Of a stretch of 64,000 nt of DNA, positions 9,174 through 61,153 are shown piece by piece. The stretch's first letter is position 1. Each line of letters opens with the position of its first letter. Location of the stretch: the NCBI GenBank assembly GCA_001790445.1, contig MGCQ01000001.1, positions 104,462-168,461 of the forward strand. Direction: 5' to 3'. Source of the DNA: Candidatus Saccharibacteria bacterium RIFCSPHIGHO2_12_FULL_41_12 (GTDB lineage: Bacteria; Patescibacteriota; Saccharimonadia; Saccharimonadales; 2-12-FULL-41-12). A model generated the notes under the pieces. It searched no databases and was not told where the DNA came from. It saw only the letters and a program-made list of their open reading frames with translations. Both the position numbers and the translations under genes were made by a program.

Positions 9174-10559
<1,386 letters not shown>

Positions 10560-10588
10560 TTATTCTCCTTATCTAACTTAAATGGTTG

Positions 10589-10694
10589 TTTATATGAATA
10601 CAATACAAGGCAGGGCTGAGAAGCGGACCAAACTGTATTTAATGATACAGTGCGGGAGCATCGCAAGGCATAACGCAGTAGTGTTTCATATAAA
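10589..10694 (-). other. Structured ~105-nt element inside the 145-nt atpG-atpD spacer
   Basis: Outer 10-bp stem TTTATATGAA (10589-98) / TTCATATAAA (10685-94) and inner 7-bp stem ACTGTAT (10632-38) / ATACAGT (10645-51). Confidence 0.4.
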
Positions 10695-10698
10695 TCAA

Positions 10699-11586
10699 TC
10701 ATGATTTGACTGCCTCTGCACCACCAACTATCTCAGCTATCTCTTGGGTTATTGCTGCCTGACGAGCAGTATTTAATGCCAAGGTCAAATCTTCAATAAT
10801 ATCTCCGGCATTATCGCTAGCGTTTTTCATAGCCATCATTCTCATACTTTGTTCACTAGCACCTGCCTCGAGCAGTGCTTGCCAGAGCTGTACTTCTATC
10901 AGACGAATGCCCACACTTTCAATAATTTCTTCAACAGATGGCTCAAAAATAGCCACCTCAAGTGGCGACAACTCGCGGGTTTCAGTCTTTTTGTCATCTG
11001 GATCGATAAGGTAGGGAATCAAAGCTACAGAGACAACTTCTTGGCGGATACTTGAGATAAATTGAGTATAGACGACCTTGACTCTATCTATTTTTTTTTG
11101 TAAATAGTGTGAAGTTATCACCTCAATCATTGGAGCGATCGCTTGTGGGCTCGGGTGATCTCCTAGCATTGGGTAGGCACTGTGGTGATTCAAGCCTTTA
11201 TGTTTTGCTACAAATTTACCAGCATATCGTCCAATTGAAATAACATCTGTATTGATTTTGTCCGCTTTGTTTTGTTTAATGATTTCTATAAATTTCTTTA
11301 ATACGTTTGAGTTATATGCACCGGCTAGTCCTTGGTCACTACAGACAACAACTAGTAGCTCATTTTTAACAGGTCTATTGGCAAATAAATCATCAAGTTT
11401 GGCATCTGAGACACTCGATAGTTGACCGATTAGCAGCCGTGCTTGTTCCTTAAAAGGTCGTGAATTAATCGCATATTCCTGGGCGTGGCGCATCTTGCTA
11501 GCGGACACAAGTTCCATCGCCTTCGTAATCTGGCGCGTGTTTTTGACGCTAGTAATCCGTCTTTTAAGAGTAGTTACGCCTGCCAT
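10699..11586 (-). CDS. atpG: F1 ATP synthase gamma subunit
   Basis: 295 aa. N-terminal RI.SVKNT.QITKAM and C-terminal ITQEI.EIV.GA motifs. Confidence 0.95.
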   Translation of the reverse strand: MAGVTTLKRRITSVKNTRQITKAMELVSASKMRHAQEYAINSRPFKEQARLLIGQLSSVSDAKLDDLFANRPVKNELLVVVCSDQGLAGAYNSNVLKKFIEIIKQNKADKINTDVISIGRYAGKFVAKHKGLNHHSAYPMLGDHPSPQAIAPMIEVITSHYLQKKIDRVKVVYTQFISSIRQEVVSVALIPYLIDPDDKKTETRELSPLEVAIFEPSVEEIIESVGIRLIEVQLWQALLEAGASEQSMRMMAMKNASDNAGDIIEDLTLALNTARQAAITQEIAEIVGGAEAVKS

Positions 11587-21180: not shown

Positions 21181-21181
21181 T

Positions 21182-21226
21182 CCTCCGTCGCTATGTTTTG
21201 ACATAGCTATGGGGGATTATTTTTTG
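21182..21226 (+). terminator. Hairpin plus T-run terminator directly after tRNA-Asn
   Basis: Stem GCTATGT/ACATAGC with an outer CCTCC/GGGGG extension, followed by TTATTTTTT. Confidence 0.65.
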
Positions 21227-21268
21227 AGTCGGACTTGAACAAGACAACCCATACAAGCCAGCTTGGAT

Positions 21269-21357
21269 GGTAGTTGTCGGTTCGTTCATAAGAAGCTCTC
21301 GCAGAAGCTTGCTCCGAGAAAGCTTTGCAGTGTGCCAAAGGCAGCCCCACCCCGAGA
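21269..21357 (+). repeat. tRNA-Asn-derived T-arm fragment carrying a ~62-nt insertion (repeat B), a direct repeat of 23890-23975
   Basis: GTTGTCGGTTCG + insert (TTCATAAGAAGCTCTCGCAGAAGCTTGC…GGCAGCC) + CCACCCCGAGA. Roughly 90% identical by eye to the 23868-23980 copy. Confidence 0.8.
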
Positions 21358-21379
21358 ATCAATTCAGATTCAAGATACT

Positions 21380-21417
21380 GTTAGAACCGATTCCCCTCGT
21401 TGGGAGTCGGTTCTAAC
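21380..21417 (+). other. 16-bp perfect-stem hairpin in the leader of the KaiC-like gene
   Basis: GTTAGAACCGATTCCC-CTCGTT-GGGAGTCGGTTCTAAC with one G-U pair. No following T-run. Confidence 0.6.
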
Positions 21418-21541
21418 CATTTCTGGGAACTGTAAAAGGCCCCATTCATTTTTTCTAGTGAACCTACGCATTTGATTGCATTTATCCTCTGAGTTAGCTA
21501 TCATTTAGATACAAACAACTAATGTTTTTTCATCTGGGCGT

Positions 21542-44532: not shown

Positions 44533-46041
44533 TTAGAGGCTAACTGTTTTTGTTATAACAGCTGTTGCGCCGTTAGCATCAGTTACGATCAATGTAGCGA
44601 TGTAATTGCCTAGTTTTTTATATTTGTGAGTGGGGGATACAGCCGTAGAAGTTCCGCCATCTCCGAAGTTCCAGCTATAAGTCAGATTCGTACCATCTAT
44701 ATCACTTGAAGTATTTGCAAAACTTACATTGCGATGTGAGCCAACAGTAAAGTTGAATCCAACCGTTGGATCGTCGTTAATACTGGAGACAGTCAGGCTA
44801 ACCGTGGCTGTGGCAGAACCCTCAGAATTAGAGACTGCATATGTAAAGCTATCACTGCCATTGTAGTTAGTGGCAGGGGTGTAGGTAAATGTGCCATCTG
44901 TAGAAACGGAAACTGTGCCATGTTGAGCTTGTGTCTGTAATGAGTAGGTGGCCACGCCTTCGACAGAGTCGTTTGTGGTGACACTACCGCTTAGCGCGCT
45001 GTCTTCACTGACTGAGAAATTGTCGGCAATGGCAACAGGCGGTTCAATTACAGGATTGACCGTAATATTTACGATAGCCTGGGAGCTAAAACCATCAGCA
45101 TCTGTCACGCTGTAAACAAAGCTATCGACGCCGTTGTAGTTGGCGGCAGGGGTGTAGGTGAATGAACCATTGCCTAGATTTTGCAAAGTTCCGTGATCAG
45201 CACCATCGACAACGTCAACTTGCCCAGGCAAAGGCTGGTCATCGCTATCATTGGCATATACGTTAATCTGGACTGAGCTGTCTTCATTAACAACCGCTTG
45301 GTCGTTCTGAAGAGTTGGAGCTACTGGATCGGGGACTACTGTTCCTAGAGTCATAGTAACTGTTGCTTCATTGCTAACACCTCCATACACATCAACTGCT
45401 CGATAAGTAAAGCTAACTGGGCCTCTATAACCAGGCTCAGGAGTATATGATGTATAGACTGACTGGCCTACGTTGACACTTCCGTGATCCGGCTGGGTTA
45501 CTACCTCGGCGAATAGGAAATCACCTTCGGGATCTGAGTCGTTTGCACGCAAATCAGGCGTTATAGTGTTTCCGCTATCAAGAGAATAGTCTGACAGACC
45601 ACTAAAATCATACTGATCATTATTAGCCGTGGGAGACTGATTAACATCGCGAACATTGAGATCCCTACTATAACTATCCGTCAATCCTACTTCGTCAGTA
45701 ACTGTTAACGTAGCCACGAAAACACCTGGAGTAAGATATACGTGCGTAATATCTCCAGCAGAAGAACTATAGCCTGTGCCGTCTCCAAAATCCCAAGTGT
45801 AATTTGTTATTTGATCCCCGCAGCCATCACTGTAATTAGTAAAATTTGCAGTCTGATTGGTCATAATCGTAGCGTCGGTCCAGAAGGAAGAATAAGGCAC
45901 ACCATCCGCACCGCATGTAGGGCCCCCAGCAGCACTTGCTTTATTAACACTTACAATACCTAGGACCGGCGTCATCGCCAGAAACAGAGCAAAAACCCCA
46001 AAAGTAAATTTTTTAATATTTGTTAACATTAGACCCTCCAT
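44533..46041 (-). CDS. Secreted surface protein with PKD domains flanking cadherin/Ig-like repeats
   Basis: 502 aa with a signal peptide. WDFGDG…H.Y appears at both ends (PKD), with repeated …DSF.Y.V.D..G.S… modules between. Confidence 0.7.
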   Translation of the reverse strand: MEGLMLTNIKKFTFGVFALFLAMTPVLGIVSVNKASAAGGPTCGADGVPYSSFWTDATIMTNQTANFTNYSDGCGDQITNYTWDFGDGTGYSSSAGDITHVYLTPGVFVATLTVTDEVGLTDSYSRDLNVRDVNQSPTANNDQYDFSGLSDYSLDSGNTITPDLRANDSDPEGDFLFAEVVTQPDHGSVNVGQSVYTSYTPEPGYRGPVSFTYRAVDVYGGVSNEATVTMTLGTVVPDPVAPTLQNDQAVVNEDSSVQINVYANDSDDQPLPGQVDVVDGADHGTLQNLGNGSFTYTPAANYNGVDSFVYSVTDADGFSSQAIVNITVNPVIEPPVAIADNFSVSEDSALSGSVTTNDSVEGVATYSLQTQAQHGTVSVSTDGTFTYTPATNYNGSDSFTYAVSNSEGSATATVSLTVSSINDDPTVGFNFTVGSHRNVSFANTSSDIDGTNLTYSWNFGDGGTSTAVSPTHKYKKLGNYIATLIVTDANGATAVITKTVSL

Positions 46042-46122
46042 TAATTTTAAACCATGGATTTATTAAACCACTTATTGCACGCAATAACAACCAGGCTTGA
46101 TTAGAACCCCTACACTGCCCAA

Positions 46123-46797
46123 TCAGTGTAGAAATCTAAATGGTAATGAATCTTGCTGAGCAACTCTTCCAGCCCTTAAAACATGAGGCGGTTTCTTTGT
46201 GGGAGGCTCGATGCCTACAATCCAATCCTTTTTAATACCACCGAATATTCCAACTTCTGCTACCTCAATTGTATCTTTATACCCAATTTGTTTGTCTGTG
46301 GCTTCAATAACCTTCGCCACTGGCAGCACTCGATCCATAGGAACATCAAGAGCCATAAGGTGCATGTGTGGCCAGATGCGTTTTTTTGCTAGGTACTCAT
46401 CGTAGGTTGCAGATAACCATACGGTGGCAACTCCGTAAGCTCTTTGCATATAAACAGACTGCATTCTGTCAACTTTAGGTACAAAACAGCCTGGCAAATC
46501 AGGACTTTCATCATCTAATGGCTCAATCTTTTTCCTATAGAAATCAAATGGATCCTTTGAATACCAATCAGGTAACTTTACTGTGTTTGACAATGTCGCT
46601 ATACTAGCAACGCTCAAATTACCGATATCTATCCCCCTAAAGGCTGTTGCTAGCTGTGGAACATCAATATTTAAGGATCTTCTATACAAGCGTATGTTGT
46701 CACCGTTAATTTCTATCTCTGAATTACCTTCAAAGTAAGGTCGATACTCGCGTCCGCCAGCTTCGATATATTGAGCAAATGTATTAAAATAAGACAT
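46123..46797 (-). CDS. Hypothetical protein
   Basis: 224-aa ORF with no recognisable motif. Confidence 0.5.
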   Translation of the reverse strand: MSYFNTFAQYIEAGGREYRPYFEGNSEIEINGDNIRLYRRSLNIDVPQLATAFRGIDIGNLSVASIATLSNTVKLPDWYSKDPFDFYRKKIEPLDDESPDLPGCFVPKVDRMQSVYMQRAYGVATVWLSATYDEYLAKKRIWPHMHLMALDVPMDRVLPVAKVIEATDKQIGYKDTIEVAEVGIFGGIKKDWIVGIEPPTKKPPHVLRAGRVAQQDSLPFRFLH

Positions 46798-46873: not shown

Positions 46874-47250
46874 GTTGCGATTAAAGCCCTCTGGGCTTTT
46901 AATCACCATACTTTCTTGTGCTAACAAGAAAGTATGCAAAGAAATAGCAGGCGGTTGAACAAACTTGATGGGACTATCGGTCAAGGATCACAACAGACTG
47001 CGGAACTCTCTCCCTTTGGTCGTTCAAACAGTCCTCGCCTGATAGTTGTGATCTTGACGTAGTCTCTCAGGTTTGTTCAAGGCCTGACCAACAATCTGTA
47101 TATTTTCGTAGAAAATATTATTAATTATGACTTTAGACTATTTCATGCCAGGCCCTTGAATAACTGATGAAATATCTATTCAAGCAACGCCATGTTTTGA
47201 GGACCAGGGCTTGTCCCCGACTGGAAGGAGTCCCGGAAAAACTGGGTTGG
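46874..47250 (+). ncRNA. Candidate large structured RNA, copy 1 (unassigned class). The 3' boundary is uncertain
   Basis: No credible ORF. It is homologous in blocks to the reverse complement of 55172-55564, with compensatory changes in at least four helices (see findings). Confidence 0.6.
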
Positions 47251-47377
47251 TTGGAGAGATATTTCAATCATGTTAGTTCAATAGCCTGTCGTTTTTTGGG
47301 TTCCGTTTTTGTCGACACAAAAATGGAACAAAATACGGCTTGTGTGCAAGCCTGCTGGAAGTTGTTATACTTATGAT

Positions 47378-48091
47378 ATGAAGAGGAAGTTTGCGGTATT
47401 TGATATTGATGGCACTTTGATACGGTGGCAACTTTATCATGCTGTTGTTGATAAATTGGCGGGTGCTGGGCTTCTGGGCAAAGAGGCAGAGGAGAAGTTA
47501 CATCGAGCTAGGATGGTCTGGAAAAACCGCGAGCATCCAGAGGCCTTCGCTGGTTATGAGAACAATCTAATAACTATATTTGAATCTGCCTTGCACCAGA
47601 TCAAAACAGCTGAGTTTGACGAGATGATCGACAAAGTTATAGATCAATACAAAAATCAAATCTACACTTACACCAGGGGGCTAGTTAAAGACTTAAAAGC
47701 CAAAGGGTATTTTCTGATAGCAATATCAGGATCGCACCACGAACTGGTTGAAAGATTAGCAAAATACTACGAATTTGATGATTGGGTAGGGACCCACTAC
47801 GAAAGAGAGGCCGGAGGTTTTAGCGGTAAGAAATTTATCGCTAGCAAAGACAAAAGCGCAGTTTTAGAGCAGATAATTGAAAAATACGGGTTATCTAGCG
47901 AGGGTAGCTACGGCGTTGGTGATAGCAAAACCGACGTTAGCATGCTTCAAATTGTAGATAATCCGATTGCCTTTAACCCAAACCAAGCACTGTACGAAAT
48001 TGCCAAATCTCACGGCTGGCCGATAGTGATAGAACGCAAAAATGTCGTCTACAGAATAAATGAAAGCAACGACCGCTACATCTTACAATAG
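47378..48091 (+). CDS. HAD-IB family hydrolase (SerB-like)
   Basis: The ORF is open from 47309, and homology starts at ATG 47378 (MKRKFAVFDIDGTL). ISGS and GDSKTD motifs. Confidence 0.7.
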   Translation: MKRKFAVFDIDGTLIRWQLYHAVVDKLAGAGLLGKEAEEKLHRARMVWKNREHPEAFAGYENNLITIFESALHQIKTAEFDEMIDKVIDQYKNQIYTYTRGLVKDLKAKGYFLIAISGSHHELVERLAKYYEFDDWVGTHYEREAGGFSGKKFIASKDKSAVLEQIIEKYGLSSEGSYGVGDSKTDVSMLQIVDNPIAFNPNQALYEIAKSHGWPIVIERKNVVYRINESNDRYILQ

Positions 48092-48135
48092 TTGTAAAAT
48101 TGACACATTGACATTTTTGTGATAAAATCACTATC

Positions 48136-48621
48136 ATGTTAAGGAACGGCACTTCTCCGGTATTTGATTTTGAATTTTTGCGAGCTCTTGACCACGAGTT
48201 CAATCCACAATGTGACCCAGAAAGAGGAAGTCACACTTTGGCAAAGTTAGCCATGTCTGTTATTGATAAAGGCGAGAAGATTAGTCAGGACAAAATATCA
48301 AGACAACCAAGCTGGGGAAAAGAATTTAGTGTTGAAGTTGTTGGCACAAAAGCTGGCAAAGACAAACCTAGGTCAGTGCTATGGCTTGGGCTTCATGGGC
48401 CACATAGAGATATATCATTCACATTTGACAATAAACAGCATCAGATAATAGTTACAAGTAGTGGAGTTAAGAGTTTGGAACCCGAATTTGAAGTTCCTAT
48501 ATCATTAAGTAGACAGGAAGATTGGTCTCAATCTGCAGCCATCATAGCTATGGCTACTGAAGCTTTCTTTGATACACCTCCTCACGCAGCAGATTTGACA
48601 ACTGTCGATAAGTCTATATAA
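48136..48621 (+). CDS. Hypothetical protein
   Basis: 161-aa ORF with no recognisable motif. Confidence 0.45.
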   Translation: MLRNGTSPVFDFEFLRALDHEFNPQCDPERGSHTLAKLAMSVIDKGEKISQDKISRQPSWGKEFSVEVVGTKAGKDKPRSVLWLGLHGPHRDISFTFDNKQHQIIVTSSGVKSLEPEFEVPISLSRQEDWSQSAAIIAMATEAFFDTPPHAADLTTVDKSI

Positions 48622-48730
48622 TTAAAGTTTATGGGTAAAATGCTACCACTATACTACACTTGGAACTTTAACTACTTTTTTAGAAAGCGGCGTTTTAGTC
48701 TATATTAATTTATAAGCAAATAAAGACTAG

Positions 48731-48754
48731 ACCGCCAAAAGAGGCGGTTTTTTA
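48731..48754 (+). terminator. Rho-independent terminator
   Basis: ACCGCC-AAAAGA-GGCGGT followed by TTTTTT. Confidence 0.8.
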
Positions 48755-48777
48755 ATTTTAGAATAAGAAAAACAATC

Positions 48778-49932
48778 ATGACAGAAGCAACACAAGACAG
48801 AATAAGAGATACGGGCTACAAAGATCACTTTCAGCCTGAATATCCTAATGTTGCAGAGCTGGAAGAGGTAACCCGCAAGTTGAGAGATATGACTGGAATC
48901 GCTACTCCTGAGGAAATACTGACAACCAAACAGCAATATGCCGGCGTAGCAACTGGCGCAAACGGTAGCTGGATTTTGGTAACTGGACCATGTAGTGAGC
49001 CAATATCACTACAGCAACCAGAGACTACATTTGTTGAACGATATACCAGACTCCTGCAGATAGGCAAAGCTTCAAGCCCTACAAGTCCGCCACTTCATGC
49101 TTTGCGGGCTTGTGGACAGAACGCAAAACCAAGAAGTGCCGAGTGTGAGATGTTGCCGGATGGTTCAATTGTACCTTCTTACTACGGAGATTTGATTAAT
49201 GGCATTGACCCCAGCGACCGTACACCAGACCCCACGCGCATGGTTGCAGGCGCTTTGCAGGCACGAGATGTCAATCGTGCGCTAAGAGATAATGGTCAAC
49301 AATTCGTATCTACTCATGAGGCTCTGCTTCTTCCGTATGAAGAGAGCTTTATCGTCCAAGGCGCACAAGGGCGAGAATTCTTAACTTCATGTACCGTGCC
49401 ATGGATTGGCAAGCGCACTAATGAACCAGATGGTATTCATGTTGATATGTTAAAAGATATAGAAAACCCAATCGGCATAAAGATCGGCCCTGGAGACAAA
49501 CCAGAAAAAATCGCAGAACTTACCCAAAAGCTAAACCCGAGTTGTGAGCCTGGCAAACTTTTGTATATTTTGCGATTTGGTGTTGGCAACTTATACCAAG
49601 CACCAGAAATATTGCAATCCATAAAAGATCACTCAAAAGGTGCGCTGATTCTTTGTGATCCAATGCATGGTAACACAGTCAAAACCCTCGACGGACGAAA
49701 AACGCGTGAAGTCCCGAGGATAATAGATGAGATCAAAGCCATTAGTAAAATGTGCCAGGAACTAGGTTTACGCTTGCATGGTCTCCACCTAGAGGCCAGC
49801 GGTAGAGATGACAGGGTAGAATGTGTGGACTCAGTCGGTCAAAGCCCAGACCACACCGCCGTAGTCGATCCAGAACTCAATAATAACCAACTTGCAGGAG
49901 TACTAGAAGAAACCGGGGAGTGTTTCGTCTGA
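48778..49932 (+). CDS. Class II 3-deoxy-7-phosphoheptulonate (DAHP) synthase-like enzyme, short form
   Basis: 384 aa. GQNAKPRS, STHEALLLPYE, WIGKRTNEPDGIHV, NP.G.K.GP, CDPMHGNT and LHLEASG follow the AroA(II) motif order. Confidence 0.75.
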   Translation: MTEATQDRIRDTGYKDHFQPEYPNVAELEEVTRKLRDMTGIATPEEILTTKQQYAGVATGANGSWILVTGPCSEPISLQQPETTFVERYTRLLQIGKASSPTSPPLHALRACGQNAKPRSAECEMLPDGSIVPSYYGDLINGIDPSDRTPDPTRMVAGALQARDVNRALRDNGQQFVSTHEALLLPYEESFIVQGAQGREFLTSCTVPWIGKRTNEPDGIHVDMLKDIENPIGIKIGPGDKPEKIAELTQKLNPSCEPGKLLYILRFGVGNLYQAPEILQSIKDHSKGALILCDPMHGNTVKTLDGRKTREVPRIIDEIKAISKMCQELGLRLHGLHLEASGRDDRVECVDSVGQSPDHTAVVDPELNNNQLAGVLEETGECFV

Positions 49933-50000
49933 GTGACGACATAGCAACACATAACGCTAATGCTTGCAAACTGTCTACCAAAAATCTACAATAGCTGACA

Positions 50001-50978
50001 ATGAGTAGAAAAGCTCCTGCAGAAAATTGTATAGAGATAATTGCCCCATTACTTGAAGAGTTGAATCACCAAGGGATGCCTCCGTGTCAACTCATAGGAG
50101 GTATAGGTTCGGCGGCTTTGAAAGACCCACGTACAGAGATATTGCCCAAAACAAAAGAGGTAATAGCACCCCCTGACTTGTGGGTTCCTTCAAGGCGCGA
50201 AGAAGACAACACCCTGAGAGATTTGGACTTGCTTGTTTTAAGTACTGAAGCGACCGACATACGAAAGATTAATGGTCTAGCCACCAGCATCATCGGGAAT
50301 GCACTAGATGTATCAGTATTCGGTCTGCAAAAAGTTAGCAAATTAGAAAAAAGATCGCGTCAATTTATACTGTCCACTGCTGTGGGTTTTGTTTCAGACA
50401 GATACATCTACGACCTTGGGCAAGCCCCAAGAGATGGCGTCGATGGACATAAGGCGTTATTCCCATTTGCCGCACCTATCACCGAATCTTCTTTGGAGCC
50501 ATGGGAGTTGCATATTGGTGGCAACGTTGCACATGTACCTCATCCTGCAGTAGTCCCTCTCTATTATGCGGGAAGGTCCATATCCGGTCTGCGCCACAGA
50601 GACGTAGAAAAAGTCAACAAGATTGCTACAAATGTCTTTGATAAATTCCCCGAAGCTCTCGAGTGGATTGAGGAAGGTCCTGGTAAATCACAGTTAGAGT
50701 TTGCGCGCATCCTACACACACTCAGCACAAGCGCTTGGAGCGAAGAACCATTAATTCTAGGAGGGAAGCTTAGGATTGATCCACTCCCACTCGGCAAACT
50801 TGCTAGCCACGACTATTTTCTGTTGAAAGACCGACCTGAGAAGACACAACAACGTGCCCTCAACGCAGCCCGTGCCAAATCCCGCACCATAAAATTTGGA
50901 GAACAGTTTGATCCTCTCGTAGCAATATGGCGCAAATATTTCGAACGATACGCTGACGTCTTCACCCATAACCAATAG
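50001..50978 (+). CDS. Hypothetical protein, possible nucleotidyltransferase fold
   Basis: 325 aa. IGGIGSAAL…DLDLLV resembles the G[GS]…D.D NTase signature (weak). Confidence 0.35.
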   Translation: MSRKAPAENCIEIIAPLLEELNHQGMPPCQLIGGIGSAALKDPRTEILPKTKEVIAPPDLWVPSRREEDNTLRDLDLLVLSTEATDIRKINGLATSIIGNALDVSVFGLQKVSKLEKRSRQFILSTAVGFVSDRYIYDLGQAPRDGVDGHKALFPFAAPITESSLEPWELHIGGNVAHVPHPAVVPLYYAGRSISGLRHRDVEKVNKIATNVFDKFPEALEWIEEGPGKSQLEFARILHTLSTSAWSEEPLILGGKLRIDPLPLGKLASHDYFLLKDRPEKTQQRALNAARAKSRTIKFGEQFDPLVAIWRKYFERYADVFTHNQ

Positions 50979-50996
50979 CTTGCTATAATTATCGTA

Positions 50997-51908
50997 ATGA
51001 ACAGGGACGAATTTACTATAGCGGAGCATCATTTTAAGACCACTGATGGTCTGCACACACTGTATGTGCACGAGTGGGGTAATCCTCATGGTAAACCAAT
51101 TCTATACGTTCATGGTGACCCTGGTGATGGTTGCAAAGAGAAAAACAAATTGTTTTTTGACCCCAAAAAATTCAGGGTGATATTTCTAGACCAAAGAGGA
51201 GCAGGCAAGAGCGTACCCAGTGGCAGCATCGACAACAACACGATGCAGTATCTTCTAGAAGATATTGAAATGGTCAGAACAAAGCTCAAAATAGACAAAT
51301 GGGCTATTACCGGCGAATCATGGGGTTCTACTCTGTCGCTTTGTTACGCAATCAAGCATCCTGATCGCGTCTCAAGATTGATCATCGGGGCAATATGGCT
51401 AGGCACAGATTCAGAATTTGACTGGTTGTTTGGCGGGGGTTGGAGAGACTTTTTTCCAGATTTATGGGAACAACTTCTCCAGAATACTCCGAAGCGATAT
51501 CATCAAAATCCTGGGCAGTATCATCTTAACAATGTCTTTGATCCTAAATCAAAAACTTCAAATAAATCATTATTCGAGCTTAGCAATGTTGAGTTTTCAC
51601 TTGTTCATATGGACGAGAAAAAGGTACCTCTCAATATCGATGAGTTTGACGTAAATGGCATGAAGGTTGAAATGCATTATTTAAAAAATTCATGTTTCAT
51701 AGACAATGATCATATTATTGCAAATGCTGATAAATTGACCATGCCAATTAATATTATCCAAGGACGATACGATATGGTCTGCACACCAAAAAACGCCTAT
51801 AAACTGCACCAATCTTTGCCAAACTCAACACTAACTTGGACGCTCGACGGACACGCATCAAGTCGCGCATCTAGCGATGTTATCGGGCAAACGATTAAGA
51901 TGATTTAA
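50997..51908 (+). CDS. Proline iminopeptidase-type alpha/beta hydrolase
   Basis: 303 aa. HG.PG, DQRGAGKS and the nucleophile elbow GESWGS. Confidence 0.75.
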   Translation: MNRDEFTIAEHHFKTTDGLHTLYVHEWGNPHGKPILYVHGDPGDGCKEKNKLFFDPKKFRVIFLDQRGAGKSVPSGSIDNNTMQYLLEDIEMVRTKLKIDKWAITGESWGSTLSLCYAIKHPDRVSRLIIGAIWLGTDSEFDWLFGGGWRDFFPDLWEQLLQNTPKRYHQNPGQYHLNNVFDPKSKTSNKSLFELSNVEFSLVHMDEKKVPLNIDEFDVNGMKVEMHYLKNSCFIDNDHIIANADKLTMPINIIQGRYDMVCTPKNAYKLHQSLPNSTLTWTLDGHASSRASSDVIGQTIKMI

Positions 51909-51913
51909 AGCTT

Positions 51914-52687
51914 ATGGATATTGCAAAACTTAATCCAAAAGACTTTGAGGAAATACTTTGGTCGCGTCCAGAAAATAACCGCCAAGCCAGCACTTTAATC
52001 ATCCTTGGTGGGAGCAAAGATCACTTTGCAATTACCTCTAGATACTACATGTCTTTGGCAAATACAAAAGGAGTCAAACTCAGTTTAGTTTTACCTGATT
52101 ATCTGGCAAAACTTGTTGGCAAAAAAGACCCCAATATTATATTTGTGAATTCTAGTAAAAGTGGGGGATACTACGTCCGGCAATCACTACCGGAAATTGC
52201 TGGAATTATTGACGGGGCAGATGCATGCTTAATTTCTGGCGAAATGGGCAACAGTAGCGAAACCCAACAATTTCTAGAAAATTTACTAGACGATTGTAAG
52301 GTTCAAATAATTCTCAACGAATCCGCGCTGAGCTGTTTTGCAGAAAATTATTTGCTTAAATTACTATCAAAAGATAATGTCACCCTATGTATAGATAACT
52401 TGGCTCTTGGCAAGCTTGGCAGAAGCATAAAATTTGAAAAAGCGTTTACTACTAGCCTAGGGCTCGCCCAGAAATTGCAATACTTTGAAATCTTCACAAA
52501 AAAGTACTCATGTGCGCTTGTCACCTCTGATACAGGCACAATTTGGTGCGCCAAAAACGGAAAAGTTTTTTATACAAAATCGGCAAAAAACATAGAACAA
52601 GTGACAGCAGATATCAGCTGCTGGTTGTCTTGGAATAGCAAAGACCCTCTCAAAACAATCGCCTCAACCTTTGATAATTTCTGGTAA
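51914..52687 (+). CDS. Divergent YjeF_C/ribokinase-like fold protein
   Basis: 257 aa. ILGGS…, ISGEMG and ILNESAL parallel the YjeF C-terminal motif order, but catalytic residues are not conserved. Confidence 0.3.
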   Translation: MDIAKLNPKDFEEILWSRPENNRQASTLIILGGSKDHFAITSRYYMSLANTKGVKLSLVLPDYLAKLVGKKDPNIIFVNSSKSGGYYVRQSLPEIAGIIDGADACLISGEMGNSSETQQFLENLLDDCKVQIILNESALSCFAENYLLKLLSKDNVTLCIDNLALGKLGRSIKFEKAFTTSLGLAQKLQYFEIFTKKYSCALVTSDTGTIWCAKNGKVFYTKSAKNIEQVTADISCWLSWNSKDPLKTIASTFDNFW

Positions 52688-53284
52688 TTTTGCCAATTGA
52701 TCTGTGCTGGCATCTGCTGAAAAGGCATTGTGCTGAGCAAACAAAATGCTTTTCATACCAGCTGATTTCGCGGCTTGAACATCAACGTGGGTGTCGCCAA
52801 CATACACGCAGTTTTCAGGAAGAATCCCAAGTTTTTTGCCTGCCAACAACAAGGGAGTTGGGTCCGGTTTATGCTTGTCTGTGTCTTCATACGCAACCAC
52901 AACTTTAAAGTAATTTTGCATGGCAACGAGGTCTGGTATTTTAAAGATACTGTCGCGGATTCTGCTGGTAACAATTCCCAATCGATAGTTTTTACTGAGT
53001 TCGATTATAGTTTTTTCAAGATCTGGCATTGCACTAGGGAATGAACGATCCCTAACAACAAGATTCTTGCCCAGCTCCCAGATACGATTTATCTCCTCCT
53101 CGTCTTCTATGGACGTATGCAACTGAATAACTTTCTTCATATTATGGTGAAAATACGGTCTGTACTGCTCAGCCGTTAAGGGCTCGTGGCCGGTTTTGTT
53201 AAAAAGCTCAGAAAAAAACTCTGCATTTGACTCAAGCGAATCAATCATCACCCCGTCAACATCAAATATAACAGCTTCGATCAT
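52664..53284 (-). CDS. HAD-IA hydrolase (beta-phosphoglucomutase/phosphatase-like)
   Basis: 206 aa. AVIFDVDGVMIDS, VTS and VGDT..D motifs. Confidence 0.8.
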   Translation of the reverse strand: MIEAVIFDVDGVMIDSLESNAEFFSELFNKTGHEPLTAEQYRPYFHHNMKKVIQLHTSIEDEEEINRIWELGKNLVVRDRSFPSAMPDLEKTIIELSKNYRLGIVTSRIRDSIFKIPDLVAMQNYFKVVVAYEDTDKHKPDPTPLLLAGKKLGILPENCVYVGDTHVDVQAAKSAGMKSILFAQHNAFSADASTDQLAKLPEIIKG

Positions 53285-53321
53285 ATATTATTTATCCCAA
53301 ACTTATCATTTAATAATTTCA

Positions 53322-53406
53322 TGGTGCCGGAGGAGGGACTCGAACCCTCAAGCCTTGCGGCATGCGATTTTGAGTCGCACGCGTATACCAATTCCGCCAC
53401 TCCGGC
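53322..53406 (-). tRNA. tRNA-Leu (CAA), CCA encoded
   Basis: 85 nt on the minus strand. Acceptor GCCGGAG/CTCCGGC, anticodon stem TGCGA/TCGCA with loop CTCAAAA, long variable arm, T arm GAGGG-TTCGAGT-CCCTC, then A-CCA. Confidence 0.95.
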
Positions 53407-53409
53407 ATT

Positions 53410-53658
53410 TTATCTATTATACACTAAGGATTTTAAGAATTCTTTACCTACACCTGATTTTAAATACTTTTCACGTTTGCGTGCTTCTAGCCCTGTCCCG
53501 CACATCTCGCTGTACACAAGCCTGAGAGGAGCATAAGCTTTTGTTGAACGACTCTTACCCTCATTATGTTGCTGAATTCTTCTTTTTAGATTACTGGTCA
53601 TCCCCACATAAATGTAGTTTTTTGATTCACTTTGTAGGGCATAGACATAATAATTCAT
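53410..53658 (-). CDS. GIY-YIG nuclease family protein (UPF0213-like, 82 aa)
   Basis: YVYAL…IYVGMTSNLKRRIQQHNEG…E…REKYLK motifs. The stop codon ends 3 nt before the mature 5' end of tRNA-Leu. Confidence 0.85.
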   Translation of the reverse strand: MNYYVYALQSESKNYIYVGMTSNLKRRIQQHNEGKSRSTKAYAPLRLVYSEMCGTGLEARKREKYLKSGVGKEFLKSLVYNR

Positions 53659-53677
53659 GATAAAGGATTGTATTTAA

Positions 53678-53748
53678 GTTGCACGCGCCTACCTGCGGTA
53701 GGTAAATATACCAATCTTGCCTGCCGGAGGCAGGTCCGCCACTCCGGC
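53678..53748 (-). pseudogene. tRNA-Leu 5'-half-like fragment interrupted by two hairpin insertions
   Basis: The minus strand reads GCCGGAGTGGCGGA-[CCTGCCTCCGGCAGGCAAG]-ATTGGTATA-[TTTACCTACCGCAGGTAGG]-CGCGTGCAAC. The real tRNA has GCCGGAGTGGCGGAATTGGTATACGCGTGCGAC. Confidence 0.8.
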
Positions 53749-53779
53749 ATTTCGGATTTATTCGGAAAAGACTGTGCGT

Positions 53780-53788
53780 ATTATACCA
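53780..53788 (-). promoter_or_regulatory. Extended -10 promoter (TGGTATAAT) upstream of the fragment, GIY-YIG and tRNA-Leu
   Basis: Minus-strand TGGTATAAT lies ~31 nt upstream of the tRNA-like fragment. No other promoter-like hexamer was seen between it and tRNA-Leu. Confidence 0.45.
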
Positions 53789-53839
53789 AAGTTAGCTTGT
53801 CAGAAACAGATATACTATAATAATTGAAGTTAAACGCTT

Positions 53840-55036
53840 ATGAATGATCCAACTAAAAAAACACCTCTTGATGCACTCGGGGACGACAATAATCCAGAAC
53901 TTGCGGCTGAGTTAGTTAGGAAGAAATTAGATAAACTTTATGGCAAAGAACCCAGTGCCAAAGAAGAGATTCAAGAAGTTCAGCATGAAGATTCCAGCGA
54001 TATGTCCAAACATCAGCACTACATGGACGACCTTTCCAAATCAGGACTTAGTCTACACGAAATTCAAATAAAGTGGCATGAATATTATAACGCTCTGCCA
54101 GACAACGAAAAGAGACAAGTTTGGCGAGAATTTTATCGGCACCACGAGCAACAAAAAAATAAATTGCAGCATGCCCAAAGTTCTCGGAAGCAAACCACTT
54201 CAATAGCCAGTGCAAGTCATGTACACGCGCAACATTCTGCCAAAATTCATGACAAAGACACCACAGAAGCTGTGAAGAATGATTTGATCAATCGCATCCA
54301 AACGCGGTCCAAACCAATAACCAAAAATCAGCACGTTCGATCGCTCATCTTTGGCTTTTCAATGGGTGGTTTTGTGCTGTTGGTGCTACTTTTTAGCTTT
54401 TTCAATGAAAGATTCATCACGCCATTTATACGGCCTAGCACTAACGTTAGCGCCTCGGCAATTATCGTTAACCCAGAGGGGGCGGGCACTGCATCAGGAC
54501 CAGAGCCAAAAATAATCATCCCAAAGATCAATGTTGAGGCCCCTGTGGTGTATGACGAGCCATCGATAGAAGAAAAAGCCGTCCAAAAGGGGCTGGAAAG
54601 AGGTGTTGTCCACTACGGCACAACTCCAAATCCTGGAGAAAAGGGAAACGCCGTTATATTTGGCCACAGTAGTGGCAATATCATCAATAGTGGTCAATAT
54701 AAATTTGCCTTTATTCTTCTCAAAAGTCTCGAAAAAAACGACACTTTTATTATTGATAAAGATGGCAAAAGATATGCCTACAAGGTTTATGAAAAATATG
54801 TCACTGCACCGACGGATGTTAGCATACTCAAAGCTAGGGACCGTCCATCGACAATGACACTTGTTACTTGTGACCCACCTGGTATGTCGACAAACCGCCT
54901 AATAGTAGTCGGTGAACAAATTTTTCCTGATCCTGTCGCGAACAAAGAGAGTACTGTAGTTAATCAAAATGAAATACCTAAAACCCTGCCAAGTAATAGT
55001 CCTAGTCTTTGGCAAAAAATTAAAAACTGGTTCTAA
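53840..55036 (+). CDS. Sortase-family transpeptidase with a long N-terminal region and a TM anchor
   Basis: 398 aa. GNAVIFGHS and TLVTCDP (TLxTC) catalytic motifs. Confidence 0.85.
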   Translation: MNDPTKKTPLDALGDDNNPELAAELVRKKLDKLYGKEPSAKEEIQEVQHEDSSDMSKHQHYMDDLSKSGLSLHEIQIKWHEYYNALPDNEKRQVWREFYRHHEQQKNKLQHAQSSRKQTTSIASASHVHAQHSAKIHDKDTTEAVKNDLINRIQTRSKPITKNQHVRSLIFGFSMGGFVLLVLLFSFFNERFITPFIRPSTNVSASAIIVNPEGAGTASGPEPKIIIPKINVEAPVVYDEPSIEEKAVQKGLERGVVHYGTTPNPGEKGNAVIFGHSSGNIINSGQYKFAFILLKSLEKNDTFIIDKDGKRYAYKVYEKYVTAPTDVSILKARDRPSTMTLVTCDPPGMSTNRLIVVGEQIFPDPVANKESTVVNQNEIPKTLPSNSPSLWQKIKNWF

Positions 55037-55072
55037 AGAATAATAAACTTCTATAATGAACTGCATTTCGCC

Positions 55073-55093
55073 AAGCCCTAAATAGGGCTTTTG
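55073..55093 (+). terminator. Rho-independent terminator of the sortase gene
   Basis: AAGCCC-TAAATA-GGGCTT followed by TTTG. Confidence 0.65.
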
Positions 55094-55171
55094 TCGACCT
55101 ACTTTTTCTCTATAGCAAGAAAAAAGTAAGCAAAAAGTGCCACCCCAGTTTAAAAACAATTACCCTAGCTT

Positions 55172-55564
55172 ATTACAACTACAAACAGACTACTCTTCCG
55201 GGACTCCTTCCAGTCGGGGACAAGCCCTGGTCCTCAGATTAATCTGTTTGTAGTTGCAATAACCAAAGGTGTTTTTAAAAGGGGACCAAAAGCAGTCTAA
55301 AGTCATTATTAATAATATTTCCTACGGAAATATACAGATTGTTGGTCAGGCCCTTTGAAAAACAGATGAGACGAACAAACCAAAAGCTCCTTGTTTTGAG
55401 GACTAGGTCTCCCAGACCCGACCAAAGGAAGTCCCGGAGAAACAGGGCTTTTGTTTTGTTTGGATCAATATGTATTTTTCAAACAGCCTGCTATTTCTTT
55501 GCATACTTTCTTGTTGGCACAAGAAAGTATGGTGATTGAAAGCCTGGAAGGCTTTAAGCGCAAC
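55172..55564 (-). ncRNA. Candidate large structured RNA, copy 2 (inverted relative to copy 1)
   Basis: The reverse complement aligns block-wise with 46874-47250. The 41-nt block at 55194-55234 is identical, and helices are maintained by compensatory substitutions. Confidence 0.6.
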
Positions 55565-55602: not shown

Positions 55603-57093
55603 CTACTGGTCTGCTGGAGTTCTCAAAGCCACCTGATCCAACGTATAGGTAACAGCATCCAGTGAACCAATTGTATAGTATTTCTCATAATCTCGATCGA
55701 AATATATATTTTTTGAACTGGGGAGGGGAGTAAGCACCTGTTTATTTGAACCGTCAAAATCAATCATCATACCTTGACCATTCCCTGACACAACAATCCT
55801 GTGCCCATCTAACCAGATTGGCGCATCGCCCGCAGGCATAATCGCATCTATTTTATAATGGTAGCTTTTCTTATCTTCCATATCATAAATCGAGATATCA
55901 CCACCACCAAACGAAGATATAAACCTTACATTTTTAGAAAATTCTAGCTTCAGATTACTACTTATATTATTTTTGATCACTCTGATTGGACTAACTTTTG
56001 CGGAAGTAGTCGCCTTTGATTTTTTTACAAAATCCTCATAAATATATGTCTTGCCCTCTTTTTCTGAGCCAATAATTATGTACCACTTATCTTGAAAACT
56101 AGCGATATTAAGCGGTAGGTTCTCGCTCAGAGGTATATCACGGATATCATATAATTTGTTGTTATCAATGAGCGAAACACGAGCTTTAGTCTTGTCGCTG
56201 GGGCTAACGTGAGTAAATAATATCTTATCATCACCGTGCGATTTAAAGCTTAACACGCCACTGAGAAGTAGGCTTGTTTTTTTATCTTTCTTGTTTATAA
56301 GAGTCAAAGCACCACTAGACTTATTAAATACCAAAAACTTATCGGCACTTTTATCCAGCAGGCTGACTTCGCCGTCAATCGTACCAATTGTTTTAAGATT
56401 AAACGATTTTGTTGGTTGATCTCTGTTAAGAAGCGCATATTCAAACTTATTGTCATAAGTATGTTTGACCAAAAAATCCGTGTTGTTATTCGACCAATCT
56501 ACCACTTCAAATTGGCTAGGTCCTACGGCTTTTTCAAAAACCCCATCCGGTATCGCAAAAGAGCGTATTTTTGGTAATTTTGCACTAGTAAGATCAGTCA
56601 AATGATATTCTTTCATAGAAGACAGATCCGCATTTTCGCTAACAATCAGCCAGTTGCGATCCGGGCTCTGGGAATATACGCTTTTCATCGTTGTATTTGA
56701 GTCAACTTTGACTGTTTTGAGGTCTTTGGGCACTAACATTGGGTAATTAAATCGCTCTATCTCACTACCTTCTAGCTCAAACTTTCTCTGCCAAGTCCTG
56801 TATCCCTCTTTATTTAGTTGCAAATCATAGCCCCCAGCGAGCAGTGTAAACCTGGTGTTTGTTTTATCTGGGTGATCTTGACCATTAATCTTGATATTTG
56901 CCTTATCAGGGGCACTATCGACATAAACTAGACCATTTTGGATCACTTCGCCTGTTTTTCTATCCACATCGAAGCCGTAGGCCTTTAAAACAAGCATCAG
57001 AGCGACCGTCACCACCGCCAAGCCAACCAAGCCCTGACCTATGACTAATATCCAATTATGACGTCTTTTATACTCTGGATCGAGAAATTCCAT
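55603..57093 (-). CDS. Membrane-anchored PEGA-domain protein with a probable beta-propeller-like C-terminal region
   Basis: 496 aa with an N-terminal TM. PEGA-like motif …ANIKINGQ…GGYDLQLNKEGYRTW. Confidence 0.6.
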   Translation of the reverse strand: MEFLDPEYKRRHNWILVIGQGLVGLAVVTVALMLVLKAYGFDVDRKTGEVIQNGLVYVDSAPDKANIKINGQDHPDKTNTRFTLLAGGYDLQLNKEGYRTWQRKFELEGSEIERFNYPMLVPKDLKTVKVDSNTTMKSVYSQSPDRNWLIVSENADLSSMKEYHLTDLTSAKLPKIRSFAIPDGVFEKAVGPSQFEVVDWSNNNTDFLVKHTYDNKFEYALLNRDQPTKSFNLKTIGTIDGEVSLLDKSADKFLVFNKSSGALTLINKKDKKTSLLLSGVLSFKSHGDDKILFTHVSPSDKTKARVSLIDNNKLYDIRDIPLSENLPLNIASFQDKWYIIIGSEKEGKTYIYEDFVKKSKATTSAKVSPIRVIKNNISSNLKLEFSKNVRFISSFGGGDISIYDMEDKKSYHYKIDAIMPAGDAPIWLDGHRIVVSGNGQGMMIDFDGSNKQVLTPLPSSKNIYFDRDYEKYYTIGSLDAVTYTLDQVALRTPADQ

Positions 57094-59791: not shown

Positions 59792-61153
59792 ATGTATAGT
59801 ATAGTATTACAAATGGAACGTCCCGCTCAAGACTATACTGTATTAGATATGAAAGCAATTCACAGCGAAGCCTTTTTGGACAATGCCGTATTCGACATAG
59901 TTAAGGCCGTGCTCGACAACGCAGGCATTAATGACCCAGAAGCATATCGTGAAAATGCTAACCAAGAGGTGTTAGACTGGTTTGCTGCAAAGGGGGATGA
60001 TAAGCCAGACATGAACTTAGGAGAATCGACCGAAGTCTTAGCAATTTTTAGGGACTTCAAGACGCTGTTTGGCAAAAATTCTTTAAGTCTAACATTGGAT
60101 AATGACGGAGAGGTTGATAAACGAGTTAGCTACTACTTTATGTCACATGCTGTGTCATCAGCAATGCTAGAAGCAACCAATTTTGATGACGCAGATTCGG
60201 TTGTGTGTTTACTCAAGAGACAAGCAAGTCTAGACAGAAACCTCCGCCTTGCGATTAACCTCAATAGCATCGTTCAGGCAAGAATATCTGACAAGGTGCT
60301 TGAGGAAATTCTCCGCAGCAAAGACTTCAACGTCGGCGGCTTGGCCGTCAACACAATGTATAAGGACAGACTATCCATTGACGAAAAAATTATCCTATTT
60401 CACAAGCTACGCAGGGCGCGCCAAGATCCAGAAAATCACGCAACTGATGGCCATAACGAAATAGGAGAGAGCGGCTTAGTCAAAGACCTTGTTGAAAGCA
60501 ATCAGCTCGAGTATTTATATGGATTAGTACTCACTGACCAAATAAACCCTGGTTATATTAAGGAGCACTACTCTGAAGTAGGCGACGACTATTTAATACC
60601 TTTTTTGAAGCTTGAGACCGACACAAGCAACATAGAGTCAGGACTTAGATATATCGACGATCCGAGAGTACTAAGACAATTAGCCGAGGAGGCTAGCAGC
60701 TTCACCCGTCTTAGCGAAGAAAGCGCCAGTGAGTTTGCATACGAAGCTAACCAGCTTGCTACAGCCATAGAATCCGAGCCCATCCTTGCCGAAGTTGCAC
60801 CGCTAAACGAAGGTGAGGAGAACAAATTCGTCGTCGCTGTGGACACCAGTTCTGGCGAACCAAAGATTGTTATTGCATGGTCAAACACTAAGGATTACTT
60901 CCGTCACAAGGAGATACTGAGTCAGTATTGTCAGCAAAACGACACCCCAAGAATCTCAATCGACAACAGCCTTGTTAGTGGCGGCCATCTGGCCGTCCAG
61001 ACAGCCAATGGCAATACCCAAGTTACCTTCAGCTCAGCAAGCGGCGATTACGGTCGTTACAACCCTCAGCTGCTACAACGATACTCACAAAAAATAGGAG
61101 CAGCTCTAGCCAAATCACTGGACGCAGAACGATTAACATTTTCTTTCGTCTAA
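59792..61153 (+). CDS. Hypothetical protein
   Basis: 453-aa acidic ORF with no recognisable motif. An alternative start exists at ATG 59813. Confidence 0.5.
   Translation: MYSIVLQMERPAQDYTVLDMKAIHSEAFLDNAVFDIVKAVLDNAGINDPEAYRENANQEVLDWFAAKGDDKPDMNLGESTEVLAIFRDFKTLFGKNSLSLTLDNDGEVDKRVSYYFMSHAVSSAMLEATNFDDADSVVCLLKRQASLDRNLRLAINLNSIVQARISDKVLEEILRSKDFNVGGLAVNTMYKDRLSIDEKIILFHKLRRARQDPENHATDGHNEIGESGLVKDLVESNQLEYLYGLVLTDQINPGYIKEHYSEVGDDYLIPFLKLETDTSNIESGLRYIDDPRVLRQLAEEASSFTRLSEESASEFAYEANQLATAIESEPILAEVAPLNEGEENKFVVAVDTSSGEPKIVIAWSNTKDYFRHKEILSQYCQQNDTPRISIDNSLVSGGHLAVQTANGNTQVTFSSASGDYGRYNPQLLQRYSQKIGAALAKSLDAERLTFSFV

Follow-up and report, generated by a model that had tools for sequence, protein, structure and literature searches.

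Two facing pseudo-palindromic elements at the outer junctions of a probably native gene block in a Saccharibacteria genome

The window considered here, a 64,000-nucleotide stretch of Candidatus Saccharibacteria bacterium RIFCSPHIGHO2_12_FULL_41_12 (contig MGCQ01000001.1, positions 104,462 to 168,461), contains two copies, A and B, of a non-coding, strongly folding element that face each other across about 8 kb of genes. A preliminary description of this DNA had placed a plus-strand copy at 46.9 kb and a minus-strand copy at 55.5 kb, both RNA-like, and a repeat search of 45-58 kb confirms those coordinates. The search finds three pairs of inverted arms, at 46874-46963/55475-55564 (90 nt, 89% identical), 47081-47139/55294-55352 (59 nt, 95%; block 2) and 47198-47238/55196-55236 (41 nt, 41/41 or 100%; block 3), which are colinear between the copies and separated by stretches that do not align. 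While their location stands, the elements are each about 90-100 nt longer than first delimited (A extends to 47361 and B to ~55061), because the 3' end carries the 5' domain once more, inverted and degenerate. The elements and the genes around them are as follows.

46874..47361, plus strand: element A, 488 nt at its full pseudo-palindromic extent, as seen from the repeat arms, a fold with z = -9, the 3' inverted copy and self-symmetry (z = 6.0)
55061..55564, minus strand: element B, 504 nt at its full pseudo-palindromic extent (self versus reverse complement, z = 9.0)
47378..55036: the enclosed block of HAD237, unk161, DAHP synthase II, unk325, hydrolase, unk257, HAD206, tRNA-Leu, GIY-YIG and sortase genes, assigned with Pfam and NCBIfam
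55603..57093, minus strand: PEGA-domain gene, the conserved neighbour of copy B
44533..46797, minus strand: PKD/Big_9 gene and the ORFan unk224, species-specific, outside the bracket and to the left of copy A

Are the enclosed genes cargo? For comparison, contigs from eight other Saccharibacteria samples (labels L081, L085, L089, L090, L123, L124 and L125) were picked as graded homologues of the PEGA and HAD genes, and the window proteins were mapped onto them by tblastn. The order in L081, L123 and L124 is Exo_endo_phos, HAD, unknowns of ~150, ~320 and ~258 aa, one or two variable small genes, sortase and a convergent PEGA gene, followed past PEGA by DUF4367, GltX and DUF3048, all matching the window in order and relative orientation; HAD237, unk161, unk325, unk257 and the sortase are the enclosed genes that correspond, colinear and with the same orientation. 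L125 has Exo_endo_phos, HAD, unk159, a class II DAHP synthase (46% identical to that of the window), an alpha/beta hydrolase (68%), unk256, a Nuc_deoxyrib_tr gene, sortase and PEGA, and L085 also carries colinear orthologs of the enclosed block. Given the colinear orthologs in L081, L123, L124 and L125, seven of the enclosed genes therefore have their place at this locus in other Saccharibacteria as well, where they are found without the elements.

The two junctions that carry the elements in the window are the tightest of the region in the relatives. In L081, L123, L124 and L125, Exo_endo_phos overlaps HAD or abuts it, and the convergent sortase and PEGA stop codons are separated by 1 nt in L089, 4 in L081, 2 in L090, 7 in L123 and 1-2 in L125, so that there is no room for an element at either place. 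The same junctions in the window measure 2.9 kb (with PKD502, unk224 and copy A) and 566 nt (with copy B), respectively. Empty orthologous sites are thereby found in L081, L089, L090, L123, L124 and L125, all of them different species and not strains, and no trace of the element was found in the relatives by blastn, by a motif hidden Markov model (HMM) or by two covariance models, R1 for the 81-nt 5' domain and R2 for block 2. The window species itself has no close sequenced relative: the PEGA-domain protein beside copy B is 100% identical to a protein of Candidatus Saccharibacteria bacterium RIFCSPHIGHO2_12_FULL_41 and then only 74% and 71% to the next best relatives, and for the HAD gene beside copy A identity likewise drops from 100% to 74%.

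The orientation of the block in the window is the ancestral one. It is just this, the same gene order without flanking elements in relatives, that the preliminary description had itself set against its reading of cargo within a composite or invertible unit, and that reading is refuted. We are highly confident that the block is native and neither cargo nor an invertible segment. The impression of an accessory region holds for a part of it only: most of the block is native, but the HAD206/tRNA-Leu/GIY-YIG slot between unk257 and the sortase is unique to the window species, and the DAHP synthase and the hydrolase are patchy.

The tests of composition and mobility bear on the same issue. GC, tetranucleotide and third-codon-position GC profiles show no boundary around the block; tetranucleotide correlations inside the bracket (z = -1.5 to +0.8) fall inside the spread seen elsewhere in the window, and with such flat profiles a foreign composition of the segment was rejected. 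The genome was surveyed for mobility genes and third copies over the window plus ~8.5 kb beyond each end (~81 kb); Saccharibacteria genomes are roughly 1 Mb in size. No recombinase, integrase, transposase or invertase gene is present in the ~81 kb, and the repeats themselves are non-coding. Inversion, also proposed earlier, finds no support in the assemblies: five contigs with PEGA and seven with HAD, from several assemblies and samples, all have the ancestral orientation without any A/B hybrid, and two short contigs beginning within copy A match the A type at 100%. The elements also interrupt short-read assemblies (L088 4251-4325; L128 1-393): one Logan contig stops ~75 nt into copy B, where the 30-nt tract common to both copies lies, and two contigs begin in mid-palindrome of copy A hairpin 1. 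These breaks are repeat- or palindrome-induced and are not evidence of rearrangement. A replication terminus or origin trapped between the facing copies was considered as well; no GC-skew switch occurs between them, and this idea is therefore not supported.

What, then, are the elements? With up to 3 mismatches allowed, every one of the three blocks has exactly two occurrences in the window, and no shuffle out of 100 gave even two matches. The copies have perfect tracts of 41 and 30 nt in common, as well as a sharp 5' boundary at GUUGCG. With GC contents of 0.43 and 0.41, against 0.41 for the window, they are not notably AT-rich. There is no open reading frame (ORF) common to both, nor is any called within them by the annotation pipelines; a conserved small ORF was discarded, the sole ATG-led frame of block 2 being 10 aa long in A and 38 aa in B when read by eye. 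Integron attC-like R and L boxes at GTTGCG/CCAAC, likewise sought by eye, do not match the consensus. The parts of the two elements are listed below; R1 scores are in bits and MFE is minimum free energy.

46874..46954, plus strand: A left terminal domain, with P1, P2, junction CAAAGAAAUAG and CAGGC; 92% identical to B, R1 113.9 bits
46883-46899, plus strand: A P1, a small G+C hairpin followed by a U run, with a compensatory C-G to U-A change
46907-46936, plus strand: A P2, a perfect 13-bp hairpin
46948..47086, plus strand: A hairpin 1, 54 pairs closed by CAGGC/GCCUG, MFE -62.0, z = -6.2; arms at random-level identity to B
46999-47037, plus strand: A hairpin 1 tip, resembling the reverse complement of block 3 (motif HMM E = 0.001)
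47081..47139, plus strand: A block 2, the central, mostly single-stranded core plus an 8-bp hairpin; 95% identical to B, with a U-A to C-G change
47140..47272, plus strand: A hairpin 2, with block 3 (47198-47238) as its tip; sense -42.6 versus antisense -36.6, arms at random level versus B
47282..47361, minus strand: A right terminal domain, a degenerate inverted copy of P1-P2-junction-CAGGCU (R1 24.9 bits, E = 0.001)
47352-47337, minus strand: A P1', a terminator-like site on the minus strand
55484..55564, minus strand: B left terminal domain, with P1, P2, junction and CAGGC (R1 112.3 bits), starting 38 nt past the same-strand PEGA stop
55347..55490, minus strand: B hairpin 1, 52 pairs, MFE -55.0, z = -5.7
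55397-55438, minus strand: B hairpin 1 tip, near the reverse complement of block 3 (HMM E = 3.8e-07)
55294..55352, minus strand: B block 2, 95% identical to A
55156..55293, minus strand: B hairpin 2, with block 3 (55196-55236) as its tip; sense -52.7 versus antisense -40.1 kcal/mol
55061..55136, plus strand: B right terminal domain, an inverted copy of P1-P2-junction (R1 15.2 bits at 55073-55136)
~55069-55088, plus strand: B P1', AAGCCCTAAATAGGGCTTTT, terminator-like for the sortase gene

Two kinds of internal symmetry are newly recognised here, namely the inverted hairpin-tip motifs and the reappearance of the 5' domain, inverted, at the 3' end. The duplex between the hairpin 1 tip and block 3 has an energy of -56.2 kcal/mol in B (z = -7.2, reached by 0 of 300 shuffles) and -32.3 kcal/mol in A (z = -2.4), and block 3 has its best partner at one and the same position in A and B; in a motif HMM scan of 196 kb of Saccharibacteria DNA, the ~40-nt tip motif turned up nowhere but in the two elements. 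At the ends, the best non-self R1 matches in 392 kb of searched strand lie directly 3' of each element as it was first delimited, on the opposite strand. The one at 47282-47361(-) spans the full model length and keeps the CAGGCU junction (24.9 bits, E = 0.001), and the other is at 55073-55136(+) (15.2 bits). Aligned over 66 columns, the A 5' domain resembles the reverse complement of the B 3' flank (z = 6.0, 0 of 1000 shuffles), the 5' domain and 3' flank of B resemble each other by sequence at z = 2.6, and the corresponding pair in A is weak and not significant by sequence alone (z = 0.4-1.5). Global alignment of each whole element with its own reverse complement gives z = 6.0 (A) and 9.0 (B). 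From the terminal inverted copies, the inverted tips and the whole-element symmetry together it follows that each element is a pseudo-palindrome of ~0.5 kb, with P1-P2-J-hairpin(motif') on one side, block 2 in the middle and hairpin(motif)-J'-P2'-P1' on the other. The sequence TTTTGTCGAC, a SalI-type palindrome between T and A runs, is present in both 3' terminal domains (47301-47328, 55085-55094); it forms the loop of P2' in A, but the linker between P1' and P2' in B.

The copies fold at -160.9 (A) and -162.8 (B) kcal/mol, with z = -9.0 and -9.05 relative to dinucleotide shuffles. Their common layout begins with the small hairpins P1 and P2 and a ~140-nt hairpin closed by CAGGC/GCCUG, and continues with a mostly single-stranded core holding an 8-bp hairpin and a ~135-nt hairpin capped by the invariant 41-mer. 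In the consensus fold, 15 of 91 pairs have changed on both sides and are still paired, compared to 0-3 in the slid-partner controls, a lenient standard, because the consensus structure was derived from these same two sequences. There are clean compensatory changes in the unambiguously aligned blocks (C-G to U-A in P1, U-A to C-G in the small hairpin, and three at the base of hairpin 1). P1 and P1' resemble intrinsic terminators facing incoming transcription: in copy B, P1 lies ~50 nt past the PEGA stop on the same strand, and P1' comes after the sortase stop.

The conservation between the copies is an extreme mosaic. The left terminal domain is 92% identical, block 2 is 95% and block 3 100%, the hairpin 1 tip is 65%, and the four arms and the right terminal domain are at 46-57%, where shuffled sequences give 47-51%. 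Despite this random-level identity, the arm pairs still form 43-54 base pairs each. Neutral decay of a duplicated repeat would not keep 180 nt nearly untouched, and ordinary compensatory evolution would not randomise ~180 nt of stem beside intact blocks. The pattern might stem from strong selection on the blocks together with arm-to-arm conversion inside each palindrome, from two diverged family members having been acquired independently, or from selection that disfavors homology between the copies. The hedge of the preliminary description, that the repeats are kept for their own structure, is supported. Each of the four long hairpins folds more stably on the strand termed sense, and G.U pairs are about twice as frequent in the sense folds (17 versus 8 antisense), which is modest evidence that a sense transcript may matter.

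How did this arrangement come about? In the explanation that we favor, the ~8 kb is a native syntenic block, HAD-unk-(DAHP)-unk-(hydrolase)-unk-(variable slot)-sortase, with Exo_endo_phos on one side and PEGA on the other. Two copies of a non-coding, self-folding pseudo-palindrome of ~0.5 kb would have been inserted at both outer junctions of this block in this lineage only, presumably by trans-mobilisation or local duplication, and their inverted, bracketing arrangement would be incidental, marking neither the ends of a composite transposon nor an invertible cassette. The element would be transcribed on the strand called sense, and its outward-facing, terminator-like hairpins would stop incoming transcription, P1 after PEGA and P1' after the sortase. 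Copy B could thus act as a bidirectional terminator or insulator between convergent genes, whereas copy A would set the HAD operon apart from the newly inserted, divergent unk224/PKD unit, and may have interrupted the co-transcription of that operon with Exo_endo_phos. A trans factor, or RNA pairing of the tertiary or tip-to-tip kind, probably makes its contacts at the three near-invariant blocks, while the arms would need only to pair. Taken in full, including the origin akin to that of a MITE (miniature inverted-repeat transposable element) and the terminator/insulator role, we consider this account somewhat favored by the evidence.

Several observations weigh against it. There are only two copies in the ~81 kb surveyed (blastn, motif HMM and the two covariance models found no third), and no homologue was found in JGI metagenomes (two block patterns), in IMG/VR (three block patterns) or, by blastn, in phage and plasmid collections, so that mobility is deduced only from presence and absence between species. 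As the nearest relatives are no more than 71-75% identical in PEGA, the choice between gain in this lineage and repeated loss is one of parsimony. No target-site duplication is apparent at each element's own ends, where the longest match is 5-6 nt and the mean of the chance control is 6.0. The terminal repeats are ~80 nt long, as opposed to the 4-30 nt usual for MITEs, the right-hand repeat is degenerate, without conservation from one copy to the other, and a mosaic of 92-100% identical blocks and random-level arms is unlike the neutral decay of a selfish repeat. Finally, predictions on both copies gave no convincing promoter or sense-strand terminator in the elements.

The mosaic, with its random arms that still pair, might also be expected of two paralogous genes for a lineage-specific, trans-acting structured non-coding RNA (ncRNA) of ~400 nt, in which the conserved blocks serve as functional loops and junctions, pairing alone preserves the stems, and the internal symmetry is a by-product of an ancient internal duplication. 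The compensatory changes within well-aligned blocks, the sense-strand stability and G.U bias, the sharp common boundary at GUUGCG and the tip-to-tip complementarity at the same position in both copies all fit such genes. On the other hand, no Rfam family matches even at E <= 10, and absence from every relative and collection scanned would be unusual for a housekeeping RNA. The copies also lie in unrelated contexts, one in a divergent promoter region and the other at a convergent gene junction; the element begins with a terminator-like hairpin and has no clear sense-strand promoter or terminator; and terminal inverted copies at the DNA level are not something that an RNA gene needs. Paralogous RNA genes are a possibility to be kept in mind, but a distinctly less probable one than the insertion of MITE-like elements with a terminator or insulator role. 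Rather unlikely, in turn, is that the two elements are the only sampled members of a new ~0.5-kb pseudo-palindromic class of structured RNA or mobile RNA-like elements in Saccharibacteria. If they are, the functional modules would be the 13-bp hairpin with its junction, the single-stranded core and the 41-nt hairpin tip, with the long stems free, or driven, to change completely; the complementary tips (-56 kcal/mol in B) could drive head-to-tail multimerisation or a large conformational switch, and the element would be maintained by selection rather than being a decaying repeat.

That the copies face each other, each holding P2 (a perfect palindrome of 13 bp) and a pair of inverted ~40-bp motifs that are invariant between them, might suggest cis-acting sites at the DNA level, either protein-binding palindromes or polar replication or recombination sites. 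This is quite unlikely: there is no GC-skew switch between the copies and no conserved partner protein gene nearby, the G.U-dependent stability favors one strand, and the sites are absent from relatives that share the locus. Least probable of all, to the point of being barely credible, is that the pair forms the ends of a composite mobile element with ten cargo genes or of a segment inverted by recombination. Inverted repeats of ~0.4-0.5 kb around 8 kb do invite that thought, as do the patchiness of some enclosed genes among relatives, the perfect 41- and 30-nt tracts that could in principle support rare homologous recombination, and the known cases of MITE pairs flanking cargo, such as integrons flanked by MITEs (PMC10969869). 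But seven enclosed genes have the same place, order and orientation in relatives free of the element, the flanking junctions correspond to ancestral adjacencies, and species-specific genes lie outside the bracket (PKD502, unk224 and unk453) as well as inside it. Moreover, the composition is flat, the ~81 kb hold no transposase, recombinase or invertase, all assemblies agree and show no hybrid copies, and the divergence of the arms is too great for a duplication of recent date.

Among the enclosed genes, Pfam and NCBIfam scans identify two HAD proteins, a class II DAHP synthase, a prolyl-aminopeptidase-like alpha/beta hydrolase, a sortase, a GIY-YIG protein and tRNA-Leu(caa). The earlier list of ten genes was essentially right in content, the count being nine protein genes and a tRNA rather than ten proteins, and the scans of the enclosed genes likewise uphold its statement that no transposase or recombinase lies inside. 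Two tentative assignments fared less well: the "degenerate YjeF_C-like" unk257 matches YjeF_C/Nnr weakly (E = 0.033), and the "possible nucleotidyltransferase" has just one sub-threshold match (E = 0.004). The DAHP synthase (48778-49932) is short, at 384 aa, and scores 226 bits against an NCBIfam equivalog cut-off of 614.7; a search of GTDB genomes returned only proteobacterial and actinobacterial genes with 30-34% identity. Within Saccharibacteria it is present in L125, as a syntenic counterpart, and absent from L081, L123, L124 and L085. The slot between unk257 and the sortase has a different gene content in every genome, making it a local hotspot of gene turnover in a conserved block. It spans 52664-53839 in the window, with HAD206, tRNA-Leu(caa) and an 82-aa GIY-YIG protein, and corresponds to L081 12837-13280, L123 9038-10044 and L125 7940-8347; the relatives have a 147-aa ORF, ORFs of 256 and 77 aa, or a nucleoside deoxyribosyltransferase.

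Outside the bracket, the PKD/Big_9/cadherin-like protein has 502 aa and unk224 is a 224-aa ORFan with 0 homologues in 5.8 billion proteins. In L081, L123, L124 and L125 the Exo_endo_phos/HAD pair is overlapping or abutting; in the window these two genes and element A split it, and the PKD502/unk224 insertion must have cut HAD and the genes downstream of it off from their former upstream gene. A link between the element and the neighboring unk224 was considered and gave no leverage, since unk224 is an ORFan. On the other side, between GltX and DUF3048, is a 453-aa gene without Pfam or NCBIfam match (unk453, 59792-61153); GltX and DUF3048 are adjacent in L081 and L123, which makes unk453 another species-specific insertion.

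The searches for known RNA families covered the whole window with Rfam 15 at the gathering threshold and both copies with permissive scans (E <= 10), and found no family; the best matches (15-23 bits, where thresholds are 40-127 bits) are noise. The block 3 loop pattern has 0 matches in metagenomes and 0 in viral contigs, and three further pattern scans of viral contigs also gave 0. A junction 19-mer has 27 metagenome matches, all of them due to chance and mostly within one ABC-permease gene. A structured gap at 21.2-21.5 kb was examined as a relative of the element and is unrelated. This gap (21181-21541, plus strand, downstream of tRNA-Asn) folds with an MFE of -117.8 kcal/mol (z = -5.1), starts with a terminator-like hairpin and holds a perfect 16-bp hairpin, without matching any Rfam family. 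Another gap, 1928-2409, scored as structured (z = -4.2), but is largely an 85-aa RRM_1-domain gene on the minus strand, which is called in L121 at 10541-10798 (~1974-2231 of the window) and falls below the ORF length cut-off used for the window.

How do the elements compare to known systems? In MITE- or insertion sequence (IS)-flanked composites, such as Tn5 or the Acinetobacter class 1 integrons with identical MITEs (PMC10969869), two short repeat copies likewise bracket a multi-gene segment. Here, by contrast, the bracketed genes are ancestral at the locus, the copies are highly diverged, there is no transposase, and neither a duplication flanking the unit nor a second location of the unit was traced. 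Around the whole 46874-55564 unit no ancestral target duplication is traceable, because the outer flanks are ancestral neighbors and species-specific DNA, and no direct search for a repeat flanking the whole unit was made. The pair lacks the tested defining features of composite transposons and of invertons. Inverted repeats around accessory-looking genes in the reduced genome of a member of the Candidate Phyla Radiation thus need not mark a mobile or invertible unit, and synteny with relatives at only 70-75% protein identity sufficed to show that the block is native. Where genomes are small and gene-dense and junctions measure 0-7 nt, two junctions that each hold 0.5 kb of non-coding insert stand out.

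The large ncRNAs ROOL, GOLLD, OLE and raiA of Rfam resemble the elements in being several hundred nt long and multi-hairpin, with conserved loops and junctions and covarying stems, and the self-complementary tips of the elements could allow multimerisation in a similar way. No covariance model matches, however, and those RNAs are widespread across genera, whereas the element is found in one species. REPINs are REP doublets that form hairpins and are mobilised by RAYT transposases; they are ~100 nt long, have tens to hundreds of copies and are accompanied by a RAYT gene. They, too, are intergenic hairpin-forming elements with two inverted short motifs, in which the structure is kept and the sequence between the motifs varies. 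Unlike theirs, the ~40-nt motif here is confined, within 196 kb, to the two elements, and an IS200-like gene is lacking.

The closest comparison is with bacterial MITEs. No description of MITE-like or structured intergenic insertions in Saccharibacteria or Patescibacteria was found in the searchable literature. MITEs are small (typically under 500 bp) and non-coding, without a transposase, with terminal inverted repeats and a target-site duplication that may fade with age; they have multiple dispersed copies, a related autonomous IS that mobilises them in trans, a stable stem-loop transcript and an AT-rich intergenic location (PMC10969869). The present elements lack the target-site duplication, have ~80-nt terminal repeats made of two hairpins, the right one degenerate, and differ further in that two copies are seen, no parent IS occurs in the surveyed DNA and the similarity is mosaic, not uniform. 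Since the target-site duplication is wanting and the terminal repeats and mosaic conservation are atypical, they are not filed as members. Should more copies turn up, the elements could illustrate the evolution of palindromic elements or uncover a new RNA. Nevertheless, at 488 and 504 nt they are small, non-coding and intergenic, with terminal inverted repeats, stable predicted transcript folds and terminator-like end hairpins, without a transposase of their own, and with empty orthologous sites in other species, as in Correia/CREE of Neisseria, ERIC, SPRITE/RUP/BOX of pneumococcus and the QMITEs of Coxiella (PMC10969869). The elements are thus MITE-like in their anatomy, and an unclassified curiosity worth recording.

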